The notes under the pieces: model-generated
What the model saw: only the letters and a program-made list of their open reading frames with translations
Told to the model about the DNA's origin: nothing
Database searches by the model: none
Source: an uncultured Flavobacteriales bacterium
GTDB taxonomy: Bacteria > Bacteroidota > Bacteroidia > Flavobacteriales > CAJXXR01
Direction: 5' to 3'
Assembly: GCA_913063375.1 (NCBI GenBank)
Contig: CAJXXR010000020.1
Location: 1-57,926 of the forward strand
DNA length: 57,926 bases
Shown here: piece after piece, positions 1 to 21,000 of the stretch
Numbering within the stretch: position 1 is the stretch's first letter
Layout: every line of letters begins with the position of its first letter
Program-made: the position numbers and the translations under genes

Positions 1-74
1 AGGGATTCGAACCCCCGGTACTTGCGTACAATGGTTTTCAAGACCACCGCATTAAACCGCTCTGCCATCTCTCC
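1..74 (-). tRNA. tRNA-Ser (anticodon TGA), 3' end truncated by window edge
   Basis: Reverse complement of 1-74 reads GGAGAGATGGCAGAGCGGTTTAATGCGGTGGTCTTGAAAACCATTGTACGCAAGTACCGGGGGTTCGAATCCCT. This is a typical tRNA-Ser 5' end with a D-arm, an anticodon loop CTTGAAA (anticodon TGA), a long variable arm and a T-arm GGTTCGAATCC. The acceptor 3' strand lies beyond position 1. Confidence 0.85.
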
Positions 75-4011: not shown

Positions 4012-4035
4012 TTTACTAAAACCAATATATTTAAA

Positions 4036-4066
4036 GCCTCTTAAGTTCTACTTAAGGGGCTTTTTT
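4036..4066 (+). terminator. Rho-independent terminator after purL
   Basis: gcctcttaag-ttcta-cttaaggggc hairpin (10-bp stem, one G.U) followed by TTTTTT. Confidence 0.7.
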
Positions 4067-4585
4067 ATGCATCCATTTACCAAATACACAGTACTGAAAA
4101 TAGTCTTACTTATGCCTAGAATAATGCATGATTTGACAAAAAATTAGAGTAGTTATTAAGGATTCAAAAGAAGAACCGAATGACATAACTGATCCAACTA
4201 GAATGGAATAGTCTACCAGGTTTGTATCTACTAAATACTCAAACAATTAAAGGCGAAAATTCTGTGAGAAAATTGATCAAGAAATATCAAATCTTTCTAT
4301 TTGCACTGATCTTATCCACAAAATAGCGTGTAGAATTCTATTAAATATAAGCGCATAATCTACTATCAAGGAACCATTGCAAAACATAAGGCAAAAAAAT
4401 CAAGAAGAAATAACATTAGCACCCTTACTTCCAAATAGTTACACGGACCAACTAAAGTAAACTATAATGATATATCAACTATTAAAAACAATGAAAAGCG
4501 AAAAATGTCGCAATGAATTTATTGGGTTTTGGAGCCCATTTTAAATCAAATAAAAACGATTGAAATTAATAAAAGTACAATCCTA

Positions 4586-5086
4586 CTACACACCGTTAGC
4601 ACAACATTTTTTATATTTCTTTCCACTTCCACAAAGGCAAGGATCATTTCTACCAATCCTATTTTTTGAAGTTGCAATGGGTGCATTATGAATACCAGAA
4701 ACATACATCCACTGATCTTCTATTTTTCTAAAAGAAGAATTTTCTTGTAAGCATTCAACCTTTCCTTCTTGGCTATAAAATGCCTTAAAATGAACCGTTC
4801 CAATTGTATCCGAAACCCCTCCTTTTTCGGAAGTCAAAATTTCTAATCCAGTCCATTGAATACTATTTACCCAGACTTCAATATCCTTATAATTATCTTG
4901 TAATGTTGCAGGATCATGGGTGGCCAAAATATACGCAATGTCTTTTAGAAAATAAGCCGCATATCTTGAACGCATTAAGTCCTCAGCTGTACTTGGCAAC
5001 TTAGTTCTTAAAATTAGCGCCTCACAGCAGCTCTTAAAGCTTTTACCACTTCCACATGGGCAATCTAACTCTGGACTATAATTCAT
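4586..5086 (-). CDS. ychJ: YchJ-family protein (UPF0225) with SEC-C metal-binding motifs at both ends
   Basis: N-terminal CPCGSGKSFKSCC and C-terminal GRNDPCLCGSGKKYKKCC flank an NTF2-like core (LMRSRYAAYF...). This is collinear with E. coli YchJ. The start was chosen at the Met of MNYSPELDCPCG (5086) rather than the track start 5125, which overlaps the upstream gene by 50 nt. Confidence 0.8.
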   Translation of the reverse strand: MNYSPELDCPCGSGKSFKSCCEALILRTKLPSTAEDLMRSRYAAYFLKDIAYILATHDPATLQDNYKDIEVWVNSIQWTGLEILTSEKGGVSDTIGTVHFKAFYSQEGKVECLQENSSFRKIEDQWMYVSGIHNAPIATSKNRIGRNDPCLCGSGKKYKKCCANGV

Positions 5087-5930
5087 CCTTATGAAAGCTT
5101 GCAAAGAATAATGTAAGAGCGTCAAAGTCCTGCTCCCCTATCAGATCCATAAAATGTGCATAATTCGGCATGGCATCTCTCAAATTATCTTTCAATCTGA
5201 AAAGGGTATTGAATTCATCTGTGAACTCATTCCTCAATTCAAACAAAAATCCAATGGTAGTATTGAACAACTTAAACAAAGTCTGATCTTCTGATAAGCT
5301 TTCATCATCAATAGATAAACATTGAATCATATTCAACAGTAAATTGACATCTTTAGCTTCTATTGCCACAGCCAACCCTTTATGAATATGCGAGAAGAAA
5401 TCTACTAAATCTGCTGCATCATTTACTCTTGGAATAGGAATCGGCTCGAAACTAACATCTTCAAAAACCTCAAGTGAAGCGGAAACATCTCCCTTCTGCA
5501 TCAACATAAAGGCTTTCAAATTGGCAATGGTTAGCTGCCCAAAGACATCTTCATCATCCAATTCCCAACGTGCCTTTTCTAATAACAAAACACCTTTGGA
5601 CATCGCGTCTACTCTATACTCCTCTCCCCTATTTATAGACAATTCAGCTAGAAAGATAAGCGCCCAATCCACAAGAAATTCAGCAGTATCCGCGTCTTCA
5701 TCTAAAAACTCATACCCCAAAGCATACTCATCCGAAGCTAGATCTAATTCACCAAAAAGTGTGAATCCAGAAGCTCTAAGCATCAATCCTTTCATATAAT
5801 ATTCCGGTGAAGCCTTTAAAGACTCTACAACTGGATTATTTAGAATTGCTTGGATAGTCTCCGCATCTTGATTAGCTATTGCTACTTGATAAGCACTCTC
5901 TAACTCTTCAAAGATATCTTGTTCTCGCAT
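5076..5930 (-). CDS. Hypothetical acidic cytoplasmic protein (284 aa)
   Basis: Long ORF, strongly acidic (E/D-rich), no recognisable motifs. 11-nt overlap with ychJ-like gene suggests an operon. Confidence 0.5.
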   Translation of the reverse strand: MREQDIFEELESAYQVAIANQDAETIQAILNNPVVESLKASPEYYMKGLMLRASGFTLFGELDLASDEYALGYEFLDEDADTAEFLVDWALIFLAELSINRGEEYRVDAMSKGVLLLEKARWELDDEDVFGQLTIANLKAFMLMQKGDVSASLEVFEDVSFEPIPIPRVNDAADLVDFFSHIHKGLAVAIEAKDVNLLLNMIQCLSIDDESLSEDQTLFKLFNTTIGFLFELRNEFTDEFNTLFRLKDNLRDAMPNYAHFMDLIGEQDFDALTLFFASFHKDEL

Positions 5931-6173
5931 GTTCGGAATTATTGAAAATTTTTAGTTTCAAACGTCGGCAAAGATAGTTCAAAAATTCACTTCTCGTTCC
6001 AAAATTATCAGCATAACATAAACAAATGGATAGTTCCTTTTATCATCGGTTTATTAACCAAGTCTCTAATTAAATGATTTAAATCATAAACCACTGATAA
6101 ACAGTATATTTTGATTGTTTACAGCTAGGTTATCTACCGGAAATTTATTAACTTACATAGAAATGAAAAGGCC

Positions 6174-6596
6174 ATGAAGCTTATTGTAAAACTAAATAAG
6201 TGGGCAAATGCCCGAACCAATTTGCCATTAGATATTCTGAGAATTCTTCTGGGCGGTTTCCTATTTTACAAAGGAGTGGATTTTATAGGGCATACCGAAT
6301 ACCTGACGGATATAATCTCTCCGGTTAAAACCTACGGTGCTGAAATTACCATTGTACATTATGTTGCAATGACCCATTTAACGGGTGGCTTAATGATTAT
6401 GTTTGGTTTATTGACCAGATTAGCTGTAATAGTTCAAATCCCAATTTTAGTAGGAGCAGTAGCCATCAACTTTATAGGTATCATGGATGTCAACAATGTC
6501 ATACTTGCCACAACAGTATTATTGGTCGCCAGTTTTTTCCTAGTATACGGATCAGGAAAACACTCAGCTGATTATAATCTGCAGATGAACGCTTAG
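6174..6596 (+). CDS. Small polytopic membrane protein, DoxX-like
   Basis: 140 aa with 4 predicted TM helices. The N-terminal pattern LRILLGGFLFYKG resembles the DoxX/SURF4 family. Confidence 0.45.
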   Translation: MKLIVKLNKWANARTNLPLDILRILLGGFLFYKGVDFIGHTEYLTDIISPVKTYGAEITIVHYVAMTHLTGGLMIMFGLLTRLAVIVQIPILVGAVAINFIGIMDVNNVILATTVLLVASFFLVYGSGKHSADYNLQMNA

Positions 6597-6768
6597 TCTT
6601 TTCACTCAAGAACCCAAGTGTTGAATTAATTTCTTTGTTGCAACAAAGGAGGTTCAGGAACAGGAGGGGCAGTAGCTCAATAAAATTCCAGTGTCAACTT
6701 AGTATTCCTAACTTGATTCTATTTTCATTTCAACCATTGGATAATTAATTATTGAGTTAATAAATGAG

Positions 6769-6799
6769 AGAGGCTGTCTTAAATATTAAGACAGCCTCT
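6769..6799 (+). terminator. Perfect 13-bp stem-loop (agaggctgtctta/aatat/taagacagcctct). Possibly a distal terminator of the DoxX-like gene.
   Basis: Perfect inverted repeat followed by atatatttt. It lies 173 nt past the stop of 6174..6596 inside a 650-bp gene-free stretch. Confidence 0.35.
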
Positions 6800-7248
6800 A
6801 TATATTTTACAGAGTATACAGAGGGAATTATGCTATATTTAGAGCTTAAAAATATAACATAGAATGAACATTACTAAAACAGGTGTCCCCGTAGAATTCT
6901 AATTTCAAAAAATAACTAAAGGAGAAATGTCTTTTTCTGATCTCATACCTCAACTTTAAGCCGACAGACTAGAACCAAAAATGGTACCCATAATTATAAG
7001 AACTGTAGATAATAAAATCATTAAACACGATCAGAATAAGGCTGACCACTCCACTGGTCGAAACATACTTTGAGGAGGCTCCCTAATAACAATTTTTGGA
7101 CTACGAGTAACTATAGGAACCTATACCAATATCATTCAAAGTGGCAACAATTATGAAGTAGCCTACGGCCCTGTTTTGTTTGGGATTTGTACTGCAATGG
7201 TAGGATGGAAAAAAATGAATAAGGACTAAGGCGAAAACCTTACCTCAA

Positions 7249-7650
7249 TTATGGCTCAGTAGAGATCCGAACTCCCTCATAAGTAAGATAAGCTCCAGAA
7301 CCAAGCCCACCAGCTCTGTAATACGAATAGATGCTATCATTCCTAAAACGAAATAGAAGGGGGAAATACCAAAATTCGCCTTTTGTATCTAACCAAAACT
7401 CATGCCCTAAAGCAGATAGGGTAGTATCCGTATCTCCATAGTTTACACTAATAACAGTATCCTTTTCACTATCCGTACACCATTGAGAGGGCATCCCATA
7501 ACATTCAACACTTTCATGCACAAAATATTTTCCAATATACTTATCTCTGAAATCTGAAGGTTTTGAATCATCCTTTTCACAGGATACTAAGCAACCAGTA
7601 ATTAGTGTTATTAATCCAATTATTTTTAAGTAGATTTTCATTTTATTCAC
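7249..7650 (-). CDS. Small lipoprotein (133 aa), paralogue of 7693..8115
   Basis: Signal peptide plus lipobox (LITGCLVSCEKDD). About 65% identical to the upstream neighbour (shared FRDKYIGKYFVHES, GHEFWLDT.GEF, FRFRNDSIYS.YR.GGLG, YEGVRIS.EP). Confidence 0.6.
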   Translation of the reverse strand: MNKMKIYLKIIGLITLITGCLVSCEKDDSKPSDFRDKYIGKYFVHESVECYGMPSQWCTDSEKDTVISVNYGDTDTTLSALGHEFWLDTKGEFWYFPLLFRFRNDSIYSYYRAGGLGSGAYLTYEGVRISTEP

Positions 7651-7692
7651 TCTTATATTTCAATTTGTTGATAAAAAATAGTACTGAATTAA

Positions 7693-8115
7693 TTATGGCT
7701 CACTAGAAATCCTAACCCCTTCATAAGTCTCGTAATACCCGCAACCAAGTCCACCATTCCTGTAGGACGAATAGATGCTATCATTCCTAAAACGAAATTT
7801 AAGAGGGAAAATAGAAAATTCACCGATTGAATCTAGCCAAAACTCATGCCCTAATGCGAATAAAGTATTATCTGCACCTCCATAGGTTACACTTATAACA
7901 GTATCCTTTTCGCTGTCATCATCATTATAAGGACACCATGGAGGCGGCGCACCATACTTGACAATACTTTCATGAACAAAATATTTACCAATATACTTAT
8001 TTCTGAAATCTGAAAGTTCTGAATCATCCTTTTCACAGGATTGTAAACAACCAACAATTATCACTACCAATCCAATTATTTTTAAATAGATCTTCACTTT
8101 TATATTTATTTTCAA
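7693..8115 (-). CDS. Small lipoprotein (140 aa), tandem paralogue of 7249..7650
   Basis: Same signal and lipobox (VVIIVGCLQSCEKDD) with the same conserved core. Tandem duplicate. Confidence 0.6.
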   Translation of the reverse strand: MKINIKVKIYLKIIGLVVIIVGCLQSCEKDDSELSDFRNKYIGKYFVHESIVKYGAPPPWCPYNDDDSEKDTVISVTYGGADNTLFALGHEFWLDSIGEFSIFPLKFRFRNDSIYSSYRNGGLGCGYYETYEGVRISSEP

Positions 8116-8210
8116 TTGATTATTAACTTTCTACTAAATTATACTATATTCTTGAATATTGGATACTATTTCTACTGATAGAACTAGCCACACAATAGTA
8201 TTCAATTAAA

Positions 8211-8798
8211 CTACAATACCTCCTGAACCCTCAACTGCAATCTTGGAATTACCTGTTTTTCAAACCAAGCATTACGCTTAAACCAAGCAATATTTCTAGG
8301 AGATGGATGCGGTAATGGAAAGAATTCTGGCAGATACTGCTCAAAATTTGAAACGGTTTCTGTCAATTTCTTTTTTTTCACTTTTGGCAAATAATAATCT
8401 TGAGCATATTTACCCACCAATAAAATAAGCTCAACAGTTTCTAAAGTATCAAATAATTGCTGATGCCACAATGGAGCACACTCCTTTCTAGGAGGCAAAT
8501 CACCCGATTTTCCTTTCCCAGGATAACAAAATCCCATAGGGATAATAGCTATATTTTTTGAATCATAGAATTGATCCTTATCCAAATTCATCCAATCCCG
8601 TAGTCTCCTACCACTTAAATCATCCCATGGAATTCCAGAATTATGCACTTTCAATCCTGGCGCCTGCCCTATAATTACAATTTTTGCACTTTTACTTACT
8701 GAAAGAACTGGATTGGGCCCCATTGGTAAATGATCCATACATACTGTGCAATTCAATATAGACTTTATAAGATTTTCCATGCTTTCAAATCGATTCAT
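8211..8798 (-). CDS. Uracil-DNA glycosylase superfamily protein
   Basis: 195 aa carrying motif A GQAPG (family 4/5 UDGs have GE/LAPG) and motif B HPSPRN near the C-terminus. The assignment is at superfamily level only. Confidence 0.55.
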   Translation of the reverse strand: MNRFESMENLIKSILNCTVCMDHLPMGPNPVLSVSKSAKIVIIGQAPGLKVHNSGIPWDDLSGRRLRDWMNLDKDQFYDSKNIAIIPMGFCYPGKGKSGDLPPRKECAPLWHQQLFDTLETVELILLVGKYAQDYYLPKVKKKKLTETVSNFEQYLPEFFPLPHPSPRNIAWFKRNAWFEKQVIPRLQLRVQEVL

Positions 8799-8819
8799 TT
8801 AGCAAACAATTAACACCTA

Positions 8820-9317
8820 TCACCTCCTCCTCCTAGCACGTGTTTTTGCGCTAATCACTGGATTGTACTGAGCATATTCAAGATCTAACTCTAAGCACAA
8901 CTCTTTAGCCGCCTTCTCTGCCTCTTCAACTCCTTTCATTCGACTAAGAATTACCTTTTTTCGATGAGACTTATTCATTAAATTTATATCGTAATAGGTA
9001 CTGGTATCCGTAGTTGCTATTTGCGCTCTACTATACACTGTGGAACTTTCCATTCGCTTAAGAACTGCTATATATGGATAATCTTCATACGACACCCAAT
9101 CGCCCCATTTATAACCAAAAATCTTTGAATACTCTTTTAATCGCTTATTTGAGATATCGAGATCTACACCTGTGGTACTGAAACTAGCCACAAACCCTAC
9201 AAGAATCAAAACAAGACCGACATAGGAAACGATACCCAAAATACCCAAAAGCATGAGTAAGTAGCCCGTAAATATTAATGGTTTAGAGAATAATTTACCT
9301 GTTGTGAAATTTTTCAT
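8820..9317 (-). CDS. Small membrane protein (165 aa) with basic C-terminus
   Basis: One long hydrophobic N-terminal segment (LIFTGYLLMLLGILGIVSYVGLVLILVGFVA). C-terminal AKTRARRRR. Confidence 0.45.
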   Translation of the reverse strand: MKNFTTGKLFSKPLIFTGYLLMLLGILGIVSYVGLVLILVGFVASFSTTGVDLDISNKRLKEYSKIFGYKWGDWVSYEDYPYIAVLKRMESSTVYSRAQIATTDTSTYYDINLMNKSHRKKVILSRMKGVEEAEKAAKELCLELDLEYAQYNPVISAKTRARRRR

Positions 9318-9472
9318 TTATAAATCTTAAACTATTTATTAATTAGTCAAGAATATACAATTAATGCACGATCGAGATCACTATTTAATCGATAATTTCA
9401 AACTATCACAACCAAAAAAAACCACCTCCTTTTCCAGGAGATGGTTTATAAAAAAATAATGGAGGAATATTT

Positions 9473-11203
9473 TTATTTACTGATACTTAACATTTCTTGT
9501 TGACCAGTCTTAAGATCTGTTATCTCAATGAAATAGATACTATTTTCATTCAAGCCATCTAAAGAAATAACTTTTTCATCTTGAAGCTCAACTTCCAATC
9601 GACTTACCTCTCTACCCATAATGTCGCTAACAGAAACTCTTAAGTTTTGTAACGCTCCATTATTTTCAAGATAAAGTCCTTCCTGAATATAAGAAACTTC
9701 AAGGGAAGCTTGATTCATACTTAACTTACCTTCGTCATAACCACAATAAATTTTTTGTGAATAATTTTGAGTTAAGTCCGTAAAGTTAGGTTGAGCTAAA
9801 GTTGTTGTATTATTTGAAGGATCTAAAGGATTCACTAAAGTATAATTCAATTGTGCATCTGTGATAGTTAATTGATCCGTACAATCTGATGTAGTCCCAA
9901 TTGCTGGTGTTCTCCATAATTTTGTATCAATCACAGATCCTACAGCACTTTGATTCTCACCAGTAAGCAAATACAAATTACCGTTTGAACTAAGACGTGT
10001 AACCATTTCAGGATTATAAATTAATGGTCTAATTGATCCTAAAGCAAGATACGGCTGGTAAACTGGATTTCCAGTTACCGATCCATAATTGTAAAGGTTG
10101 TGCTTCAAATACTCCATATTATATATAGTTAAGCCCCCTGTAAGGTTTGCATCAACCTCCATCATATAGGCTTTATAATTATTAGAATTATTGTTTTGAT
10201 ACCCCGCTACAGCAAAGGTATGTCCCATGTCAATCCACTCTAAATCACACCCAAAATTGTTACTATTTGGACTAATAAAATAATGATGCCCAGCCATGAT
10301 AGCTCCTGAATTATCCAATTGAACTATAAAAGATTCATGTGTTTCCGTTTCTTGACATAAAAGAAGCAATTCATTGGTATTGGTATTTTCAATTACATCT
10401 ACACCAAAGGTCAAGTGACCATAAAAGGTTGCAATAAAAGGTTTATCCCATACTGTACCCCCTCCTGTATCCAACAAAATATTTGATACGGCCTGCGTTT
10501 CAACGGAATTCGGCTCAGGATAAGACTGAGATCCAGTAAGGTAAATTTCCTCTACCCCATTGATGTTTACAAAACGGACTTCCGAAAACATATTGTAATT
10601 CTCTACTCCACCCATACCTGAATTATAATTGTTTGACCAATTCAAATTTAGGTTTGAACTTAAACTTGCAACATAGGATTCCTTTTGGGAACTTAACATA
10701 TTCCCATTAGGATCTGCCACAAAACCACATACCGCAATATCATCTGAATTAATTGAATAATCTGACCCTAATAAATAAGTATCTCTTCCTTGCTGAAAAA
10801 CATCGGTTTGATTCAATATATTACCAGTACCACCATCTATTACCAAAACCTTACCTCTCATAAGGCCACCACTAAGATAGGTACCTACTACGCTTATCTC
10901 ATTATTATGCATCGTAACTACTGAACTTAAGTGATCTTCAGGACCAAAGTCATACAGTCTATCCCAGATAATAACGCCATTCATATCGCGTAAAGTAAGG
11001 TGAAAATCTAAATTCCCGCCTCGATCCTCTGTACTACCAGAGATAAGGTAATCTGAATGAAATTCATCGGTCACAAAATTGAAATTTGTCTCATTACCAC
11101 TAGTTGAAGGATCATCGAAGGCGTAATTCTTCACCATTACCTGAGCCATTGAAATAGTTGAACTCAAAATTGCTGCAGCAGCAATAATCGATTTAATTTT
11201 CAT
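9473..11203 (-). CDS. Secreted protein with C-terminal T9SS (Por) sorting domain
   Basis: Signal peptide MKIKSIIAAAAILSSTISMAQV. The C-terminal ~80 aa (LYLENNGALQNLRVSVSDIMGREVSRLEVELQ...IYFIEITDLKTGQQEMLSISK) has the beta-sandwich CTD pattern of type-A T9SS cargo. The body is rich in Gly/Asn/Thr beta-propeller-like repeats. Confidence 0.6.
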   Translation of the reverse strand: MKIKSIIAAAAILSSTISMAQVMVKNYAFDDPSTSGNETNFNFVTDEFHSDYLISGSTEDRGGNLDFHLTLRDMNGVIIWDRLYDFGPEDHLSSVVTMHNNEISVVGTYLSGGLMRGKVLVIDGGTGNILNQTDVFQQGRDTYLLGSDYSINSDDIAVCGFVADPNGNMLSSQKESYVASLSSNLNLNWSNNYNSGMGGVENYNMFSEVRFVNINGVEEIYLTGSQSYPEPNSVETQAVSNILLDTGGGTVWDKPFIATFYGHLTFGVDVIENTNTNELLLLCQETETHESFIVQLDNSGAIMAGHHYFISPNSNNFGCDLEWIDMGHTFAVAGYQNNNSNNYKAYMMEVDANLTGGLTIYNMEYLKHNLYNYGSVTGNPVYQPYLALGSIRPLIYNPEMVTRLSSNGNLYLLTGENQSAVGSVIDTKLWRTPAIGTTSDCTDQLTITDAQLNYTLVNPLDPSNNTTTLAQPNFTDLTQNYSQKIYCGYDEGKLSMNQASLEVSYIQEGLYLENNGALQNLRVSVSDIMGREVSRLEVELQDEKVISLDGLNENSIYFIEITDLKTGQQEMLSISK

Positions 11204-11371
11204 AAAATAATTTTTAATGATTAACTATATAATAAATGTGTATCTCAAACATAAGATTAATGTAAATACGAGTCAATCACTGAATACTGGTATATTAAAA
11301 ACTAACCTTTTTACTTACTGATAGAACTAACCACACAATAGGATTCAATTAAACTACAATACCTCCTTAAC

Positions 11372-11676
11372 TCACAACTGTAACCTTGGAATTACCTGTT
11401 TTTCAAACCAAGCATTACGCTTAAACCAAGCAATATTTCTAGGTGAAGGATGCGGTAATGGATAGAATTTGGGCAGATACGCCTCAAAATTTGAAACGGT
11501 TTCAGTCAAATTCTTTTTTCCCACTTTTGGCAAAAAAAAATCTTGGGCATATTTTCCCACCAACAAAACAAGGTCAACATTATCTAAAACATCAAATAAT
11601 TACTGATGCCACAATGGAGCACACTCCTTTCTAGGAGGAAAATCACCCGATTTTCCATGCTTTAAAATCGATTCAT
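11372..11676 (-). pseudogene. Uracil-DNA glycosylase-like pseudogene (copy B)
   Basis: The C-terminal 64 codons are about 90% identical to 8211..8798. The N-terminal ~260 nt are deleted. The retained start is followed at once by TAA (ATG AAT CGA TTT TAA, versus ...TTT GAA in copy A). There is an A9 homopolymer frameshift at ~11536. Confidence 0.8.
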
Positions 11677-11697
11677 TTAGCAAACAATTAACACCTA

Positions 11698-12171
11698 TCA
11701 TCTCCTCCTCCTAGCCCGTGTTTTTGCACTAATCACGGGATTGTACTTGGTATATTCTAGATCTAACTCTAAGCACAACTCTTTAGCTGCCTCCTCTACT
11801 CCTTTCAGTCGACTAAGAATTACCTTTTTCCGATGGGACTTATTCATCAAATTGATATCGTAATAGGTATTGATATCCGTAGTGGCTATTTGCGATCTAC
11901 TATATACAGTAGAGCTTTCCATTCACTTAAGAACTGCTATATACGGATAATCTTCATAAGATTTTCAGCCCCCCATTTATAGCCAAAAACCTTTAAATAC
12001 GCTTTTAATTGATTTTTAGAGTTATCAAGATCTACCCCCGTTGTACTAAAACTGAGCAAAACCCCTATAAGCAGTATAATAATTCCAAGAAACGATACCC
12101 AAAAGCATTCGTAAGTATCCCGTAAATATTAATGGTTTAGATAATAATTTACCCGTTGTGAATTTCTTCAT
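11698..12171 (-). pseudogene. Pseudogene of the 165-aa membrane protein (copy B)
   Basis: The C-terminal 74 codons match 8820..9317. The upstream part is alignable but broken by indels (e.g. ccccccattt) and stops. The start codon is still recognisable at 12169-12171. Confidence 0.75.
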
Positions 12172-12327
12172 TTTTAAATATTATAACTATTTCTTAATTA
12201 ACCAAGAATATATAATTATTGTACAATCAAGGTCACTATTTGATCGATAATTTCAAACTATCACAACCAAAAAAAACCACCCCCTTTTACAGGAGATGGT
12301 TTCATAAAAAATAATGGGGGTATATTT

Positions 12328-14058
12328 TTATTTACTGATACTCAATCTTTCTTGTTGACCAGTATTTAGATCTGTAACCTCAATGAAATAGATACTATTT
12401 TCATTCAAGCCATCTAAAGAAATAACTTTTTCATCTTGAAGCTCAACTTCCAATCTACTTACCTCTCTACCCATAATATCACTTATAGATACTCTTAGGT
12501 TTTGTAACGATCCATCATTTTCAAGATAAAGTCCCTCTTGAATATATGCCACCTCTAGAGAAGCTTGTTCCATACTTAACTTACCGAACTCATAACCACA
12601 ATACATTGCTTGCGAATAATTTTGATTTAAGTCCATCAAGTTAGGTTGATCCAAAGTGGTTCCATTTCCTAATTGATCTAAAGGATTTACTTGTGTATAA
12701 AACAATTTACTATCTGTAATAGTCATTGGATCTGTACAATCTGAATTAGTTCCAATTGCCGGAGTTCTCCACAACTTTGTATTTATAACTGATCCTACAG
12801 TACTAGTATTCTCTCCAGTAAGCAAATATAAATGACTATTCGAACTATGACGTGTAACCATTTCTGGATTATAAATAAATGGTCTGATAGCTCCTAAAGC
12901 CGTATATGGTTTGTAAACAACGTTTCCAGTTGCCGATCCATAATTGTAAAGGTTGTGCTTCAAATACTCCTTATTATATACAGTTAAGCCTCCCACTAGG
13001 TTTGCATCAACCTCCATCATATAGGCTTTATAGTTATTTGAATTATGGTTTTGATACCCTGCTACAGCAAAGGTTTGTCCCATATTTATCCACTCCAAAT
13101 CACAACCAAAATTGTTCATATTTGGACTAATATAATAATGATGCCCAGCCATTATAGCCCCTGAATTATCCAATTGAGCAATAAATGATTCATGTGTTTC
13201 CGTTTCTTGACATAAAAGGATCAATTCATTGGTGTTGGTATTTTCTATTACATCTACACCAAAAGTCCAGTGACCAGGAAAGGTTGCAATAAAAGGATTA
13301 TCCCATACAGTTCCACCACCTGTATCCAATAAGATATTTGAAACTGCCTGTGTTTCAGCGTAGTTTGGTTCTGGATAAGATTGAGATCCCGTAAGGTAAA
13401 TTTGTTCTACTCCATTAATGTTAACAAATTTCACTTTGGAAAACATATTATAAACCTCGTTACCACTCGTATTAGAAGTATAACTATTTGACCAGTTTAA
13501 GTTAAGACTTGAATTCAAATTTGCAACATAAGAATCTTTTTGTGCAGTCAACATATTCCCATTGGGATCTGCCACAAAACCACATACCGCAATATCGGCT
13601 GAACTATTTGAAAAATCTGATCCCAATAAATAAGTATCTCTTCCTGGTTCATAAACATCGGTTTGATTCAATAAATTACCGGAATTACCGTCAATTATTA
13701 AAACCTTACCTCTCATAAGTCCACCATTTAAGTAAGTCCCAACTACACTAATCTCATTACCTTTCGTTGTCACTACTGAACTTAAATGATCTTCAGGACC
13801 AAAATCATATAGTCTATCCCAAATAATAACGCCATTCAAGTCCCGTAAAGTAAGGTGGAAATCCAAATTCCCGCCTCTATCCTCTGTACTACCCGAAATA
13901 ATGTAATCTGTATCAAATTGATCAGTCACAAAATTGAAATTGGTTTCATTACCTCCAGTTGAAGGATCATCGAAGGTGTAATTCTTCACCATGACCTGCG
14001 CCATTGAGATAGTTGAACTCAAAATTGCTGCAGCAGCAATAATCGATTTAATTTTCAT
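12328..14058 (-). CDS. Secreted T9SS-cargo protein, paralogue of 9473..11203
   Basis: 576 aa, identical length, about 85% identity across signal peptide, body and CTD. Confidence 0.6.
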   Translation of the reverse strand: MKIKSIIAAAAILSSTISMAQVMVKNYTFDDPSTGGNETNFNFVTDQFDTDYIISGSTEDRGGNLDFHLTLRDLNGVIIWDRLYDFGPEDHLSSVVTTKGNEISVVGTYLNGGLMRGKVLIIDGNSGNLLNQTDVYEPGRDTYLLGSDFSNSSADIAVCGFVADPNGNMLTAQKDSYVANLNSSLNLNWSNSYTSNTSGNEVYNMFSKVKFVNINGVEQIYLTGSQSYPEPNYAETQAVSNILLDTGGGTVWDNPFIATFPGHWTFGVDVIENTNTNELILLCQETETHESFIAQLDNSGAIMAGHHYYISPNMNNFGCDLEWINMGQTFAVAGYQNHNSNNYKAYMMEVDANLVGGLTVYNKEYLKHNLYNYGSATGNVVYKPYTALGAIRPFIYNPEMVTRHSSNSHLYLLTGENTSTVGSVINTKLWRTPAIGTNSDCTDPMTITDSKLFYTQVNPLDQLGNGTTLDQPNLMDLNQNYSQAMYCGYEFGKLSMEQASLEVAYIQEGLYLENDGSLQNLRVSISDIMGREVSRLEVELQDEKVISLDGLNENSIYFIEVTDLNTGQQERLSISK

Positions 14059-14342
14059 AAAATAATTTTTAATGATTAACTATATAATAAATGTGTATTT
14101 CAAACATAAGATTAATGTAAAAGCGAGTCAATCACTGAATACTGGTATATTTAAAACTAACCTCTCTATACGGTTGATTATAAGCATTTTACAAATTGTA
14201 ATTACAAGGGTAATTGCATCAATTTAACAAATTACATACTGATTGTTTTAATTTTAACTATTGTTACTATTTAGAAATAACAACTTTTTAAACATTACCA
14301 TTATTTACAAGTTTTAGGCATATTTTATCAAAAGTTATAAAA

Positions 14343-14379
14343 ACAAAAAAGGGGAATCATTTTCATGATTCCCCTTTTT
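14343..14379. terminator. Bidirectional rho-independent terminator (serves the yceI-like gene on the minus strand)
   Basis: A-run, then ggggaatcat/tttc/atgattcccc hairpin (10-bp stem), then TTTTT. Confidence 0.7.
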
Positions 14380-14395
14380 ACCCATAACCGGCTAA

Positions 14396-14977
14396 TTAGA
14401 ATTCTAAATCTGCAATCAGATCAAACTCATCATATATAGCCTTATCTTTCAATCCATCAAAAAAGCTAGTTGAACCATAACGAACATCAAATTTTGTTCT
14501 ATCTATCTTCAAAGAAGCATTTGCCTTGTTTCCGTATACCGAAAGCTCAAATTGAATCGAATTGGTAATTCCTTTGATCGTAAGATCTGCAGTTACCTTA
14601 TAACTGTTCTTACCAGTCATTTTTACTTTCTTAAAGTTCAAGGTAGCTGTTGGATGAGTTGCAACGCCAAAGAAATCATCAGATTTTAGATGCCCTTCTA
14701 GTTTCCCTTTATACTCACCTTCCATATCGGTATTATTGATAGAAGACATATCCATTATAAATGAACCACCTGTCAACTTCTCTCCATCAAATTCCAATGA
14801 ACCAGACTTTAAAGCAATTGTTCCTTGGTGTGCTCCTGTAACTTTATATCCTTTCCAAACTACTGAGCTAGTAGTTGTTTTAATATCCTTCTTCGCAGCC
14901 TGTAGTGGTGTAAAAGAAAAAGTAAATAATGCAATCAATGTTGCTAATCCTAAGTTTTTGAATGTATTCTTCATCAT
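14396..14977 (-). CDS. YceI-family periplasmic (polyisoprenoid-binding) protein
   Basis: 193 aa with a signal peptide and the YceI-like beta-barrel signature (HLKSDDFFGVATHPTATL..., KIDRTKFDV). Confidence 0.75.
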   Translation of the reverse strand: MMKNTFKNLGLATLIALFTFSFTPLQAAKKDIKTTTSSVVWKGYKVTGAHQGTIALKSGSLEFDGEKLTGGSFIMDMSSINNTDMEGEYKGKLEGHLKSDDFFGVATHPTATLNFKKVKMTGKNSYKVTADLTIKGITNSIQFELSVYGNKANASLKIDRTKFDVRYGSTSFFDGLKDKAIYDEFDLIADLEF

Positions 14978-14992
14978 GCTATTGTTTTAAAA

Positions 14993-15349
14993 TTATGATC
15001 CGTAATAAAATCGCTCGTTAATAATCATACCATCCTGCCATTGCTGAACCGCAACTTGGGTAACATTTTTCACTCCCCAATCTTTATGTGTATAATCCAT
15101 ATGCCATTCTACCATAGTGACATTGCCTTCACCAATAGCAACTTTCAACACCTTTGCTCCACGAAATTCCGTGATAGCACCAAAAAATTCTTCTTCTCTC
15201 TTTCTGTTGGCAGCTTTTCCAATGACCGGGGCTTGGTCATTTTCTTGCATTACCACATCTTCGTGGTAATATTTCTCGAAGGCCTCCATGGCTTCACCTT
15301 GGAGAATCATATCATTTACATTAGAAATGTTTTCTAATAATCTGTCCAT
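14993..15349 (-). CDS. SnoaL-like/NTF2-fold small protein
   Basis: 118 aa, cytoplasmic, pattern consistent with SnoaL_2-type polyketide-cyclase-like fold. Weak call. Confidence 0.4.
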   Translation of the reverse strand: MDRLLENISNVNDMILQGEAMEAFEKYYHEDVVMQENDQAPVIGKAANRKREEEFFGAITEFRGAKVLKVAIGEGNVTMVEWHMDYTHKDWGVKNVTQVAVQQWQDGMIINERFYYGS

Positions 15350-15445
15350 AACACTATCTTTATTTGTTATGGTACAAAGGTCTATAAGAAAGACCGGGAA
15401 GAAAATAAGCTAGATTATCAAATGATGTTAAACTAGATTAACATT

Positions 15446-16030
15446 TTACTGATCCAAGATCAACTGACTCTTTATTTTACTTAAAAACTCTTTAGTCATA
15501 CCAAGGTAGGATGCAATCATATATTGTGGTACACGTTGGTCTATAGAAGGGTTTTGTTCTTTAAAATACAGGTATCGCTCCTTTGCAGTAAGACTGAAAT
15601 TTCGCACTATCCTCTTTTGGGAAGAAACCAAAGCTCGCTCTAACATTTTCCGAAACAAGCGCTCCATCTTTGGAATCTCATTGACCAAGCTCTCTTGATC
15701 ATTGTAGGTAAATTGAAGAACCTCTGTAGTCTCAATGCATTGAATATTAAAATCTGAAGGATCTTGAGATATTAAACTTCCCAAATCTGAAGCCCACCAA
15801 TCCTCTATACAAAAATTGATGATATGCTCCTGTCCCTCCTTATCAATATGATAGCTCTTTGCGCACCCCTTAAGAATAAAACAACTGATTTTACAAACAT
15901 CACCTTGTTGAAGAATATATTGCCCCTTTTGATATTTTCTATATTTTATTTTTGACAATAAAATTGCCTGTTCCTCCTCAGTAAGGTCAATGTATTTACT
16001 AATATAATTCAATAAGGAATCCGTATTCAT
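15446..16030 (-). CDS. Crp/Fnr-family transcriptional regulator
   Basis: N-terminal cNMP-binding beta-roll (YQKGQYILQQGDVCKISCFILKGCAKSY) and a C-terminal HTH (IASYLGMTKEFLSKIKSQL). Confidence 0.8.
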   Translation of the reverse strand: MNTDSLLNYISKYIDLTEEEQAILLSKIKYRKYQKGQYILQQGDVCKISCFILKGCAKSYHIDKEGQEHIINFCIEDWWASDLGSLISQDPSDFNIQCIETTEVLQFTYNDQESLVNEIPKMERLFRKMLERALVSSQKRIVRNFSLTAKERYLYFKEQNPSIDQRVPQYMIASYLGMTKEFLSKIKSQLILDQ

Positions 16031-16177
16031 AAGATTGATAGGTCAAAATAAAATTCTAGCAAAAATCAACTACTTAACTTAACAAAGCTAGTGGTTTTAT
16101 TACTGTATAACGAAATTGTAAAATAATTTCATGCAATTATTGTAACTTAAGTTGATGTTTAACTAAACAATGGAGCC

Positions 16178-16435
16178 ATGAAATTATTTAAAATTACGCT
16201 AATAGTGCTACTTCTAGGATTTACTAGTTGTTCTAACGATCCTCAAGTCCAACAAAAATATCAAGATACCAAAACTGAAATGGACAATACCGTAAAAGAA
16301 ATCAAACAAAAGGTAGAGGAAAAAACAGAACAGATAGACCAAGATATCCAAGCCCTAGAAAAGGACCTTGATAAATTGAATAAGCAATCAAAGGAGATCT
16401 CCAAAAAAGTAGATAATCTGATTAATGAATTGTAA
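16178..16435 (+). CDS. Small coiled-coil lipoprotein (85 aa)
   Basis: Signal plus lipobox LLGFTSCSN, then a K/E/Q-rich heptad sequence. Confidence 0.5.
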   Translation: MKLFKITLIVLLLGFTSCSNDPQVQQKYQDTKTEMDNTVKEIKQKVEEKTEQIDQDIQALEKDLDKLNKQSKEISKKVDNLINEL

Positions 16436-16446
16436 AAAAGGAGACT

Positions 16447-16935
16447 ATGAAAAATCTAATCACACTACTATTTGCCACTTTACTTCTCATTGCTCCAACT
16501 GGATTGAGGGCTCAAAAAAAAGATAAAAAACCTAAGAAGGTAGAGCAAAAAGTCAAAGTAGAAAAAGAAAACAAAGGCAAAGAAAAACAAGAAAAGACCA
16601 ACAAAGGCAAAGCTTTAGGAAAAAACAAAGGAGACCTTAAAGGAAAAGAATTTGGAAAGGCAGTTTCCTCAGCTGCCAAAATAAGGAAAAACAAATTATC
16701 CAAAGCTGACGAATCCATTAATGAAATGGAAGAGAAAGGTAATCGAAACAAAAAGAAATTAAAGGAAGCAAAAAAGAAATTGGAAAAGCAGAAGAAAGAG
16801 AAAAAGGTATCCGAGAAAGAATACAAGAACAAAATGAATAAGATCCGAAACCTTGAGAACGAGATAGAGGAAATTGAAAAGAAGAGAATAAAAGCTAAGA
16901 GAAAGAAAACTACTATAGAAAAAACCTTAAAATAA
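16447..16935 (+). CDS. Secreted lysine-rich low-complexity protein (162 aa)
   Basis: Signal peptide MKNLITLLFATLLLIAPTGLRAQ followed by about 140 aa of K/E-rich coiled-coil low complexity. The antisense ORF 16512..16964 is its mirror artefact. Confidence 0.5.
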   Translation: MKNLITLLFATLLLIAPTGLRAQKKDKKPKKVEQKVKVEKENKGKEKQEKTNKGKALGKNKGDLKGKEFGKAVSSAAKIRKNKLSKADESINEMEEKGNRNKKKLKEAKKKLEKQKKEKKVSEKEYKNKMNKIRNLENEIEEIEKKRIKAKRKKTTIEKTLK

Positions 16936-17060
16936 CCTTTCGCTACCACCGTAAAAGAGTACAATTAATTTTGTACTCTTTTTTTTTGAATAGCAAGAAT
17001 GGACAACTTGAAATTGTGAATTATGCCTACATTTACCCAAATACTAATCTACAAATAAGC

Positions 17061-17978
17061 ATGGATAACCAATTGCAACAAACCTATATTCAAGGCTTAA
17101 ATAAGGCTCTAATTTTCATTGACAACAATTTAAATAAGCCATTGACACTGGAACAAATTGCAGAAACAAGCAATTATTCACCCTACCACTTTCACCGTAT
17201 TTTCAAAGCCATCACAGGCGAAACGCTCAATAATTACATTAATAGACTTCGCATAGAAAAAATAGCCTCTATATTAATGCGCGTAAAAACAATTCCACTA
17301 GAGCAATTAGCTATAGACTACGGATTCAATAGTGGCTCATCACTATCCAGATCTTTCAAAAAATTCTATGGGATCAGCCCTTCTAGATTTAGAGATATGA
17401 GCAACGAACAGTTTAGCAAGATCCGTCAAACAGAAAGCAAGAATGGACAAGAAAAAATAAGCTTCGAACAATACATTTGCAACATTACTAATCTAAACAA
17501 CTGGATAAAGATGAATGCAAATATCGAAGTAAAAGAGCTGCCAAAAATAGAACTAGCCTATGTAAATCACCAAGGACCCTTTGATCAAATTGGAGTTGCC
17601 TACGGACAACTTATGCAATGGGCAGGTCCACAAGGATTAATGAGTAACCCCAACACAAAAACCTTAACTATCTACCACGATGATCCTAAAGTAACGGATA
17701 CCGCCCTACTAAGACAAAGCGCTTGCATTACATTACATCAAGAAATAAAAACTTCTGGAGCCATTGGAAAAAGAACTATCTCAAAAGGGAAATTTGCTAT
17801 TGGTAGGTTTGAAATAAATTTTGAAGAATTTGAACAATCTTGGAATGGCATGTTCCTTTGGATTACCGAAAAAGGATACCAAACTAGAGATGGTGAATAT
17901 TTTGAAATGTACCATAATAATTTCAATGACCATCCGGAGAAAAAGTGCATCGTTGATATTTGTATTCCTATTATATAA
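17061..17978 (+). CDS. AraC-family transcriptional regulator with C-terminal GyrI-like effector-binding domain
   Basis: AraC HTH (YSPYHFHRIFKAITGETLNNYINRLRIEKIA, SLSRSFKKFYGISPSRFR) followed by a GyrI-like domain (KELPKIELAYVNHQGPFDQIG...). Start taken at MDNQLQQTY (Met31 of the track ORF). Confidence 0.75.
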   Translation: MDNQLQQTYIQGLNKALIFIDNNLNKPLTLEQIAETSNYSPYHFHRIFKAITGETLNNYINRLRIEKIASILMRVKTIPLEQLAIDYGFNSGSSLSRSFKKFYGISPSRFRDMSNEQFSKIRQTESKNGQEKISFEQYICNITNLNNWIKMNANIEVKELPKIELAYVNHQGPFDQIGVAYGQLMQWAGPQGLMSNPNTKTLTIYHDDPKVTDTALLRQSACITLHQEIKTSGAIGKRTISKGKFAIGRFEINFEEFEQSWNGMFLWITEKGYQTRDGEYFEMYHNNFNDHPEKKCIVDICIPII

Positions 17979-18020
17979 TACCTGAATTTATATCTTATCT
18001 ACAACAGGTTTTGAATACTA

Positions 18021-18049
18021 AAAAAGGCGATCCATGGATCGCCTTTTTT
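18021..18049. terminator. Bidirectional terminator between araC-like (+) and the giant ATPase gene (-)
   Basis: aaaaa, then ggcgatcca/tggatcgcc hairpin, then tttttt. Confidence 0.75.
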
Positions 18050-18075
18050 GATAATATGAAAGAATAGGCCACTCC

Positions 18076-21000
18076 CTATTTCTGAGACAGTACATTTCTA
18101 ATACCATCCAATCCTTCTGTTACAGATTCTATCTGAGAAACAATCATAGCCATTTGATTGTCTCCACCAAAACCTTTTAATTTTTGATTCTTTAAGAAAG
18201 TTCTTTTGATAGCTTCCCAACGAGTCATCTCCGTCGGTTCAATCCATCCAACCAATTCTTTAAACTTCAACAAATTTGCTTCCGCACTTGTTGTAAGCGT
18301 TTGAGATTCGTTTTCATAGGCACTTAGCACAAGCGTCTTTAATTCCTTTTCATTCATTATAGGAATAATCTTCTCTGCTATCTTATTCATATTTCTATAA
18401 GATCCTTGAAGCTTAAAAGAAGGCTCCTCTCTATATTGATCCTCCATGGCTGCAGACTTGATATACTGCATATTCACTTTCAATATGATATCACGTACCT
18501 GAATCAAATGTTTCAATACTGCAACATAATCATTGATCTCTTCTACAGTATGATTGGATTCAAAGGAAATTCCCTCTTGACTATCTGTTGTTGCCAGTTT
18601 AATAAGCGCATATAAATCCTTCTGACTTTTACCAGACAAATTGCGAAGGGTAGAATTTGAAGTCAAACAATTCTCTATATAACTACTCTTAAATACATCG
18701 GCACTGTCCCCGATGATATCCCCTAAATTGTAAATATCAGCTCTATTCGCCAACATATCTGGAATCTGAAACTTATCTCCACTTTCCGTATATGGGTTCC
18801 CAGCCATTACTACACAAACCTTCTTTCCACGAAGATCGTACGTCTTACTTTGCCCCTTGAACACACCTTCAATCTTTCTTTGCCCATCACTCAAGGAAAT
18901 AAACTTCTGCAGAAATTCTGGATTACAATGTTGAATATCATCCAAATAAATCATGATATTATCCCCCATTTCAAATCCTAAATTCAATTTCTCAATCTCC
19001 TCCCTTGCTCCAGCATTTGGTGCACTTTCAGGATCCAAAGAAGTTGTCTCATAGCCCAAGGAAGGCCCATTTATCTTTAAGAAAATCACCCCCAATCGAC
19101 TGGCGATATACTCCATTAAAGTAGTTTTCCCATATCCGGGAGGAGATATCAATAAAAGCATTCCCATTAAATCAGTTCGCTTATTAGCTCCAGCTGTCCC
19201 AATCTGTTTGGCTAGATTATCCCCTATTAATGGCAGGTACACCTTATTGATCAACTTATTTCGAACAAAAGAGCTCATTACCTTTGGCTTCAATTCATCC
19301 AATTTCAAATCCAGCTTATAACGATCTATAAAACTCTTTTTCAAAGTCTTAAATTGATTAAAAGCCGGAACTTCATTCAGCACAAACCCAAGCAACCTCT
19401 TTTTATAATCTTGATAATCCAGGTTTAATTTCTGCTTCTGAATCAAGGAATGTGTTCCATTTAGACCGTCAAGATCCATTTTCAACTCAGTATCGATCAA
19501 ATGCCTTTTATCTGGCCCTGACGTCAACAGCAACATGGAGGCTTCTGAAATTAAATCCTCACTTGTTGGAGTATGAGATTCTGAGTAAGCCTTCAACCAA
19601 CTTTTGGTAATGGAATATTTTGACGAGGCTTTTACCAAGTTTTTAGTCGATTCCTCAAAGCTGGTTTTCAATTTATTTTTATTCAAATAATTTGTAAAAG
19701 CTTCACATAGATCAAAGGCTTCCTTACCAATACTAAAGCTATCATCTGAGGCCAATTCTGTAAATAGATACTTCGATACCTCCACAATATCCGCTTCAGT
19801 AAAAATACCTTCCTCAAGAATAAATTCACCAATTTCCTCACTCAAATCATGAATGAGGTCATCAAATACTTTTGTATTAGGGAAAGCTTTCAAAATATTT
19901 CCTATTCCCTTTATTTGATGATTTAAAATAGAACTCTTATCAGCATCAATAAACAGATTCCAATAAAAGGAAGCACAAGCTCTTGCCGTAGAAGAGTACT
20001 TCAAGACTCCACCCAAATGACCTATCTGCAACAAGGCCTTTACAATAATCAAAGCATCCAAATCATGAACACCTTTTACATAACCTTCGTCATACCTAGG
20101 AGCCATCGTCTCCTCAATCAATTGCAACAAGGCTTCATCGGTTCCTTCCAGCCATTCCGAAAGGCTTTGCGTACCTTTTTCTATAACCTGCAACACCAAC
20201 CAAGCTAAGTACTCAGCACGGTAAATATTTTCATTTTCAGAGACCAAGCCCTGCTTCCATACAGGTCTAGTTCTTAAGAAATCAGGATCTACAATCTGCT
20301 CAAAAAAATTGGTCCCTGTAATATGGTAATACATCTCATTATTCCTTGGAACAATAGACAGATCCAGGAGTTGATTGTTGACAGAAAACTGATGTTTCCC
20401 AAAGGATATAATTCCATCTCCTTGATAAAGTTCTGACTTATCTCTAAGTTGTCTTATAGCTTCTTCATGCGTAGACTTCAACTTACTCTGGATATTATCC
20501 GACTTTACGGTATCACCTAGTTCAACCAGGTCTTTGATAATATTCCTAAGTTTATCAACCATTAGGTCTGATGCCAAATACCCATTGATAGCATTTACAT
20601 CCTTCATTCCAGATAGACGAGTATGAATCCCCTTAATTATTCTTTCAGCAGAAAATTCTAACTGGGCAGTTTTTTTATTTCGTCTTTCTGTAAGTTGAAC
20701 TTTACGAGACTCAAATGCATTGTAGACTTCTTCTCTTTTTTCTGAGATCTTATTCAAAAAGGAATCAAATTCACCAAACTTACCTTCCAACTCTTCGAGC
20801 TGAATCAATAATTTCGTCAAATACTCTTCACATTTCTCAGCTGTATCTGAGATATCCAAATAATTAACCGCACCCTGACCAATCAGCTTCAATTGAGAAT
20901 GGAAAACAGCCTCTCCCTCTGTCAATTGTAAATCCTTCCTTTTTCTCTTTAGGACGGAATTGATCTGATTAAAACGGGCATAGATGGCAGAAATATTATT

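Follow-up and report, generated by a model that had tools for sequence, protein, structure and literature searches.

Does the tandem repeat in a contig of an uncultured marine Flavobacteriales bacterium represent a real duplication, and if so, why has one of its genes survived twice when the other two survive only once? The contig is CAJXXR010000020.1 of assembly GCA_913063375.1, and the 57,926-nt stretch analysed here is referred to as the window. An earlier note on this DNA had described a tandem segmental duplication with differential decay, in which a gene for a putative type IX secretion system (T9SS) cargo protein was kept in two copies and its neighbours were lost from one. Self-BLAST, global alignment and the lesions found in the second copy bear this description out, and the tandem segmental duplication is real.

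A tandem duplication of three genes

Self-alignment of the 8.1-14.2 kb region recovered two direct, head-to-tail units, unit A (8173-11308, 3136 nt) and unit B (11316-14163, 2848 nt), which are parted by 7 nt and have all of their genes on the minus strand. Self-BLAST aligned 8173-8513 with 11316-11656 at 90.9% identity and 8771-11308 with 11649-14163 at 85.6%. In the global alignment the units were collinear from end to end, five indels being the sole gap differences. Each unit has the same gene order: a gene of the uracil-DNA glycosylase (UDG) superfamily, a gene for a two-helix membrane protein and a gene for a 576-aa putative secreted protein, called cargo below. This order, and the near-identical intergenic stretches, had also been pointed out in the earlier note. 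Identity between the units was 90.2% in the 3' part of the UDG gene, 21/21 in the UDG-membrane spacer, 85.2% in the membrane-protein coding sequence, 87.7% in the membrane-cargo spacer, 85.2% in the cargo coding sequence and 96.2% in the region upstream of cargo. The main features are as follows.

8173-11308, minus strand: unit A, with intact UDG-like gene, intact membrane-protein gene, and cargo A with its upstream region (self-BLAST, global alignment)
8211-8798, minus strand: intact UDG-superfamily gene, 195 aa (PF03167, E 1.6e-24; GQAPG and HPSPRN motifs)
8820-9317, minus strand: intact gene for a 165-aa protein of a conserved hypothetical family, with an N-terminal hydrophobic hairpin at about residues 9-53 (hydropathy)
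9473-11203, minus strand: cargo A, 576 aa, with signal peptide, beta-propeller, disordered linker and C-terminal seven-strand beta-sandwich as predicted; the faster-evolving copy
11309-11315, no strand: inter-unit junction, TTTTACT(T), matching neither outer flank; breakpoints without shared microhomology
11316-14163, minus strand: unit B, with UDG pseudogene, membrane-protein pseudogene, and cargo B with its upstream region (self-BLAST, global alignment)
11354-11676, minus strand: UDG pseudogene, disabled by three nonsense codons (one of them at codon 5) and an out-of-frame loss of 265 nt
11649-11656, no strand: GATTTTCC, present once where the deletion occurred and twice in unit A (8506-8513 and 8771-8778)
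11698-12171, minus strand: membrane-protein pseudogene, with frameshifts of -14 and -1 nt, an in-frame loss of 9 nt and one nonsense codon
12328-14058, minus strand: cargo B, 576 aa, intact; the slower-evolving copy, closer to the related-species orthologue

Apart from the 3-kb units and a small neighbouring pair (7247-7665 and 7691-8117), self-comparison of the window found no long repeats. An invertible or phase-variation switch was ruled out by the absence of inverted repeats from 6000-17000, and an Rfam scan of the window placed no RNA family in the duplicated region.

Decay of the passenger genes in unit B

Both passenger copies of unit B, UDG and membrane-protein, are pseudogenes, and the families from which they derive are real and widespread, as follows from their disabling lesions and from the intact paralogues that place each in a conserved family. 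The UDG protein of unit A matched PF03167 over its full length (87.1 bits against a gathering score of 24.3), and the GQAPG and HPSPRN columns were invariant across 17 sequences, the protein itself and 16 relatives. With this full-length match and both motifs it belongs to the PF03167 superfamily, and its closest known counterpart is the UDG family protein of about 190 aa in Flavobacteriia. It could not be assigned to UDG family 4, whose models scored below their cut-offs (TIGR00758, 23.3 against 125.3 bits; NF040953, 24.8 against 250 bits). The protein has at least 8000 relatives; among the matches listed, Kordia supplies the nearest named ones (66% identity), and a genome scan with the UDG alignment returned only relatives of 64% identity or less.

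The UDG copy in unit B lacks the 265 nt that lie between the two GATTTTCC repeats of unit A, and with them residues 10 to 97 or so, including GQAPG. Such a loss is typical of slippage between direct repeats of 8 nt. Codon 5 is GAA in unit A and TAA in unit B, and two more nonsense codons (WHQQ changed to WHQ-stop and RLQLR to RLQL-stop) bring the total to three. Both lesions that the earlier note had reported in this gene, a deletion of about 260 nt between direct repeats and a TTT GAA to TTT TAA change just after the start, were thus recovered. That the remnant might belong to a family of functional short UDG-derived open reading frames (ORFs) was ruled out: the best 120 relatives are all 188-239 aa long, and the remnant lacks UDG motif A. 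The pseudogene reading stands, and the remnant is dead.

The 165-aa membrane protein of unit A gave no match in a Pfam scan but has 841 representative relatives at E<=1e-3, mostly with full-length matches. Its copy in unit B is disrupted, as the earlier note had proposed, by indels (gaps of 14, 1 and 9 nt), and it also carries a nonsense codon (AVLKR changed to AVLK-stop). Differences from the intact gene nevertheless retain a bias to third positions, with rates of 0.108, 0.069 and 0.268 at the three codon positions in the frame of unit A. The synonymous divergence (dS) of the remnant is 0.483, and the ratio of nonsynonymous to synonymous divergence (dN/dS) is 0.20 overall and 0.10 over the C-terminal 86 codons. 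Since both the dS (0.48) and the constraint match those of the live cargo pair (dS 0.53), purifying selection acted on the gene through most of its history after the duplication, and its inactivation is recent. The second membrane-protein gene therefore decayed late.

Maintenance of both cargo genes

The cargo genes took another course. Both frames are open and the proteins are 84.0% identical, close to the figure of about 85% given in the earlier note for two intact 576-aa proteins. Between cargo A and cargo B, dN is 0.093 and dS is 0.533 by the NG86 method, and the resulting dN/dS of 0.17 indicates that both copies are maintained by purifying selection. Values of about 0.5-0.9 were reached only at codons 441-500, in a poorly modelled linker.

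Protein evolution of the pair is asymmetric, with cargo A evolving approximately twice as fast and cargo B remaining conservative. In a relative-rate test, 42 lineage-specific amino-acid changes fell to cargo A and 19 to cargo B (p = 0.004). Changes at codon positions 1 and 2 showed the same imbalance (58 against 30, p = 0.004), while third positions were even at 58 and 58. The suggestion that selection had favoured two divergent cargo variants thus held in part. Both copies are kept under constraint and their rates differ two-fold; gene-wide positive selection was not seen.

Mosaic divergence and exchange between the units

Divergence between the units is not uniform. Silent divergence is two- to three-fold lower at both ends of the cargo gene (the 5' end together with the promoter region, and the part that encodes the C-terminal domain) and in the 3' part of the UDG gene. 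Within the cargo gene, third positions differ at 13/101 sites in the ends (codons 1-35 and 511-576) and at 138/475 in the centre (Fisher p = 7e-4), and permutation tests of run length and of window variance at third positions gave p = 0.003-0.005. Exact matches of 90 nt (11154-11244), 77 nt (9524-9601) and 59 nt (8242-8301) between the units mark these tracts.

Constraint does not explain this pattern, because the ends and the centre are equally diverged from the outgroup, the cargo gene of a related species described below (0.446 against 0.432). In windows of the C-terminal domain, 30-48% of nucleotides differ from the outgroup and only 3-10% between A and B. The low divergence of the ends therefore indicates exchange between the copies and points to partial gene conversion, or homogenisation, between the units. 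The UDG remnant shows a similar deficit, with third-position differences at 14/108 sites compared with 193/734 in the rest of the unit (p = 0.003), a dS of 0.162 and a dN/dS of 0.44. Such values fit a later homogenisation of the UDG segment, after which the dead copy evolved in a largely neutral way.

Comparison with a sister species

A related genome with a single cargo gene (GCA_002163335.1) was available for comparison. Its flanks align with those of the window at approximately 76-78% nucleotide identity and carry the same genes (cNMP-binding, SnoaL, YceI, DoxX and YchJ-like). The interval between YceI and DoxX, at 6174-14977 in the window and 2147-18770 in the related contig, is a variable region. 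In the sister species it holds about 16 kb of other genes, among them OmpA-like, DUF1287, acetyltransferase and fused aspartokinase/homoserine dehydrogenase-like genes, together with one cargo gene whose product is 71% identical to cargo A (P0003). Neither a UDG gene nor a membrane-protein gene is present in that interval. A 164-aa gene near the sister-species cargo gene was considered as a membrane-protein orthologue and ruled out (E = 0.6).

With this single cargo gene as outgroup, 293 sites group A with B, 88 group A with the outgroup and 116 group B with the outgroup. NG86 dS is 0.53 between A and B, compared with 1.25 and 1.44 to the outgroup. The dominance of the first pattern and the lower dS between the copies mean either that the duplication post-dates the species split or that conversion has kept the copies similar.

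The three genes were not found together elsewhere. None of 80 UDG loci, dominated by Bacteroidota, has a membrane-protein or cargo homologue within 4 kb, the other five members of the cargo family lie in unrelated neighbourhoods, and the closest UDG relative in the related species (P0010, 74% identical) is on another contig among other neighbours. This argues for a segmental duplication with passengers and not for a duplicated operon; the UDG, membrane-protein and cargo genes are functionally unrelated.

Unit boundaries and the origin of the duplication

The earlier note had proposed that microhomology at both unit boundaries mediated the duplication by slippage or recombination. This is the claim that did not survive. 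The left flank ends in ...TATTTCT where unit A begins with ACTGATAGAACTAGCCACAC; the A-to-B junction reads ...AAAACTAACCT TTTTACTT ACTGATAGAACTAACCACAC; and unit B passes into the right flank as ...AAAACTAACCT CTCTATACGG. The motif AACTAACC has three matches in the window (11300, 11325 and 14155). All of them are at unit ends, with about two expected by chance, and two of the three are copies of each other. Two copies flank the junction out of register with it, being separated by 17 nt (TTTTTACTTACTGATAG) of which 8 (ACTGATAG) are sequence of the repeated unit. The left end of unit A carries AACTAGCC in place of the motif, and homology begins 8 nt further out, at ACTGATAG. Had a single crossover taken place in microhomology, the junction would hold one motif and no more; a microhomology mechanism is therefore unsupported. 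The breakpoints show no informative homology, and we infer some form of illegitimate or unequal recombination.

Proposed history and alternative explanations

We propose that a single illegitimate or unequal recombination event copied the 3.1-kb, three-gene block head to tail within the variable YceI-DoxX interval, after the split from the single-cargo sister species. Neither cargo copy lost its open frame, its signal peptide, its terminator or the region that holds its promoter. The redundant passengers of unit B would have been tolerated for most of the time since the duplication and then inactivated, the UDG copy through stop codons and a deletion of the slippage type between two 8-nt repeats, and the membrane-protein copy through frameshifts and a stop codon. 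Several segments may later have been made alike again by gene conversion or unequal exchange: the 5' end of cargo and the region upstream of it, the cargo C-terminal domain and the 3' part of the UDG gene. We assign a probability of approximately 85% to this reading as a whole, that is, a fixed duplication after the species split, with two cargo genes kept, passengers decayed and later exchange between the copies.

Several points weigh against it. The junction and the copy number rest on one contig, identical to the window; the timing and the rate asymmetry rest on one outgroup comparison; and, in a genome of 35% GC, the NG86 method gives imprecise dS values from about 0.5 upwards. Regulatory or translation-initiation constraint at the nucleotide level could be a partial cause of the low divergence of the cargo ends, although the outgroup control opposes this. 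The duplication could also be older than it looks and masked by conversion. In the strongest form of that view it dates to the sister split or before, concerted evolution hides its age and the sister species lost one copy. Homogenised tracts are clearly present, and in several central windows third-position divergence between A and B equals that from A or from B to the outgroup. Over the whole gene, however, the 293 sites uniting A and B far exceed the 88 and 116 of the other patterns, the dS of the membrane remnant (approximately 0.48) lies far under the 1.25-1.44 seen to the outgroup, and the precise shared boundaries, with 95-96% identity at the ends, would require conversion across non-coding DNA. 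We consider so early an origin improbable.

Slightly less probable still is that the cargo centre, or all of unit B, was imported from a diverged strain by homologous recombination, with the conserved ends as arms. Such an import would account for the change in silent divergence along the cargo gene, from about 0.1 to about 0.5, and for codons 181-240 and 436-480, where copy A is the outlier and divergence between A and B approaches the inter-species level; the locus also lies in a variable interval. The membrane remnant, which is outside the cargo gene, nevertheless has a similar dS (0.48 compared with 0.53), which makes high divergence the background of the unit and the low-divergence patches the exceptions. 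Sites grouping A with B prevail in nearly all 48-codon windows, and a search of 5.8 billion proteins, in which the cargo family has 7 members, returned no donor-like sequence. Least probable, and in our view very unlikely, is an assembly artefact in which the metagenome assembler joined two strain versions of a single-copy locus head to tail. The window comes from a metagenome contig, and a de Bruijn graph could be misled by the exact matches of 59-90 nt between the copies. But the junction (unit right end, TTTTACTT and unit left end, 11300-11332) is unique and unlike both outer flanks, so that spanning k-mers, absent from single-copy genomes, must exist in the reads. Both outer flanks are single copy, and both cargo proteins are recorded on two contigs, with NCBI, JGI and ENA as sources. 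A divergence of 15% with codon-position bias, together with several lesions of independent origin, is in keeping with long co-residence or paralogy. A fixed duplication after the species split thus remains the preferred reading.

The cargo proteins and their C-terminal domain

Each cargo gene has a terminator-like and a promoter-like element.

9447-9419, minus strand: intrinsic-terminator-like hairpin and T-run downstream of cargo A
12303-12273, minus strand: terminator-like hairpin downstream of cargo B
11246-11276, minus strand: promoter-like site upstream of cargo A (TTGACT ... TATGTTTG), a consensus match only, in a region 96% identical to unit B
14103-14131, minus strand: promoter-like site upstream of cargo B, equivalent to that in unit A

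The promoter-like site, TTGACT-17-TATGTT(TG), is identical for both genes and is a consensus match only. Its TATGTTTG also fits the Bacteroidota consensus TAnnTTTG.

The cargo proteins are predicted to be secreted or surface-exposed beta-propeller proteins. By inspection, the N-terminus resembles a signal peptide (MKIKSIIAAAAILSSTISMAQV; MKIKSIIAAAAILSSTISMA-QV), and a helix was modelled at residues 4-15. An AlphaFold model built from a 7-sequence alignment had moderate confidence (mean predicted local distance difference test score, pLDDT, of 64.5) and showed an all-beta propeller at about residues 39-430, a disordered linker at 434-499 and a C-terminal sandwich. The top match in the PDB by Foldseek was CylK (7roo; E 8e-13, template modelling (TM) score 0.49), the other matches being generic propellers. 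The predicted likeness to CylK lies in the all-beta propeller fold; sequence identity to it and to like propellers is only 14-15%, and no function can be transferred.

The C-terminal domain was examined separately. Modelled alone, the last 88 residues formed seven strands with a pLDDT of 84.3, and Foldseek matched this model to generic immunoglobulin-like (Ig) and fibronectin type III (FnIII) domains only, with DUF3244 at a TM score of 0.69. Type A cargo of the T9SS has a Sec signal peptide and a C-terminal sorting domain with a seven-strand, Ig-like fold and motifs A-E (PMC10202324), and the seven-strand sandwich of the cargo has the architecture of these domains.

At the level of sequence the resemblance is weaker. 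Por_Secre_tail (PF18962) scored 18.3 bits in cargo B and 14.4 in cargo A, below its cut-off of 27, although 6 of the 7 family members match it at E<1 (best 4.7e-4, model positions 15-73 of 75); TIGR04183 matched 2 of the 7 (best E = 0.0011). An hhalign comparison of the cargo tails with three bona fide tails gave P = 3e-4 and a probability of 39%, in register to the last residue. The tails have LEN where PNP is usual and xIYFIE or GxY at the position of motif D, and all seven members have K or R within the last five residues. A PDB sequence search with the tail profile gave only a weak S-layer match (E = 0.002) and was uninformative.

The "T9SS-CTD" label (for C-terminal domain) that the cargo had been given is plausible as to architecture but weaker than had been stated, since the scores fall short of the curated cut-offs. 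Shared with T9SS type A cargo are the signal-peptide-like start, the seven-strand C-terminal sandwich, the basic residue near the end and a Bacteroidota host; the sub-threshold scores, LEN in place of PNP and the generic fold matches differ. Among the window genes scanned there was no T9SS component, and bona fide Por_Secre_tail proteins occur near cargo homologues at other loci. Export by the T9SS appears likely, by a modest balance.

The family itself is very small. Only 7 members were found among the 5.8 billion proteins, each alone in its 90%-identity cluster, and a scan of 185,579 species-representative genomes with the family alignment gave no match. Three members (L006, L007 and L008; 55%, 46% and 43% identical to cargo A) come from a single Logan sequencing run, ERR13847728, and lie in three different neighbourhoods, two of which adjoin bona fide Por_Secre_tail proteins. 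The family may be present in several copies per genome in this lineage.

Other features of the window

A second, independent tandem duplication lies directly to the left of unit A, at 7247-8117, with copies 79% identical in DNA. Its two genes, 7249-7650 (133 aa) and 7693-8115 (140 aa), are small, lipoprotein-like and on the minus strand, and their products have a Cys after a hydrophobic leader (LITGC and IIVGC) and no Pfam match. Together with the 3-kb repeat, it marks the interval as duplication-prone.

The remaining observations lie elsewhere in the window. Two spermidine-synthase-domain proteins of 513 aa each (27173-28714, plus strand, and 31302-32843, minus strand) share 53% identity and are arranged in opposite orientation around 28718-31301; they are older paralogues, undetectable at the DNA level. 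The window begins inside a tRNA gene (1-74, minus strand; Rfam RF00005, 39.5 bits). A 1627-aa protein encoded at 18076-22959 on the minus strand, with DUF3686, DUF7902 and weak AAA domains in precomputed Pfam data, is unrelated to the duplication.

Implications

Tandem segmental duplication, loss of redundant passengers, asymmetric divergence of paralogues and concerted evolution between repeats make up a well-known model. This locus fits it and differs in nothing fundamental; the event is of a kind already known, an ordinary duplication followed by gene loss, and its novelty is low. What stands out is that the passenger membrane-protein copy was long under selection before it died. The locus thus offers a worked case in which pseudogenes with a residual signature of purifying selection can date the end of tolerated redundancy. 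It also carries a warning for annotation, in that the 64-aa, 74-aa and smaller ORFs of unit B are gene fragments and not genes.

One further possibility, which we regard as unlikely, is that the repeat acts as a diversification module. Recurrent conversion would keep the promoter, signal peptide and tail identical while the exposed propeller and linker surfaces diverge, with cargo A under relaxed or positive selection. If so, the bacterium would present two forms of an orphan surface or secreted protein that is restricted to its lineage. The cargo pair also points to a very small orphan family of putative secreted beta-propeller proteins with a candidate sorting tail that falls below the thresholds of current T9SS models.

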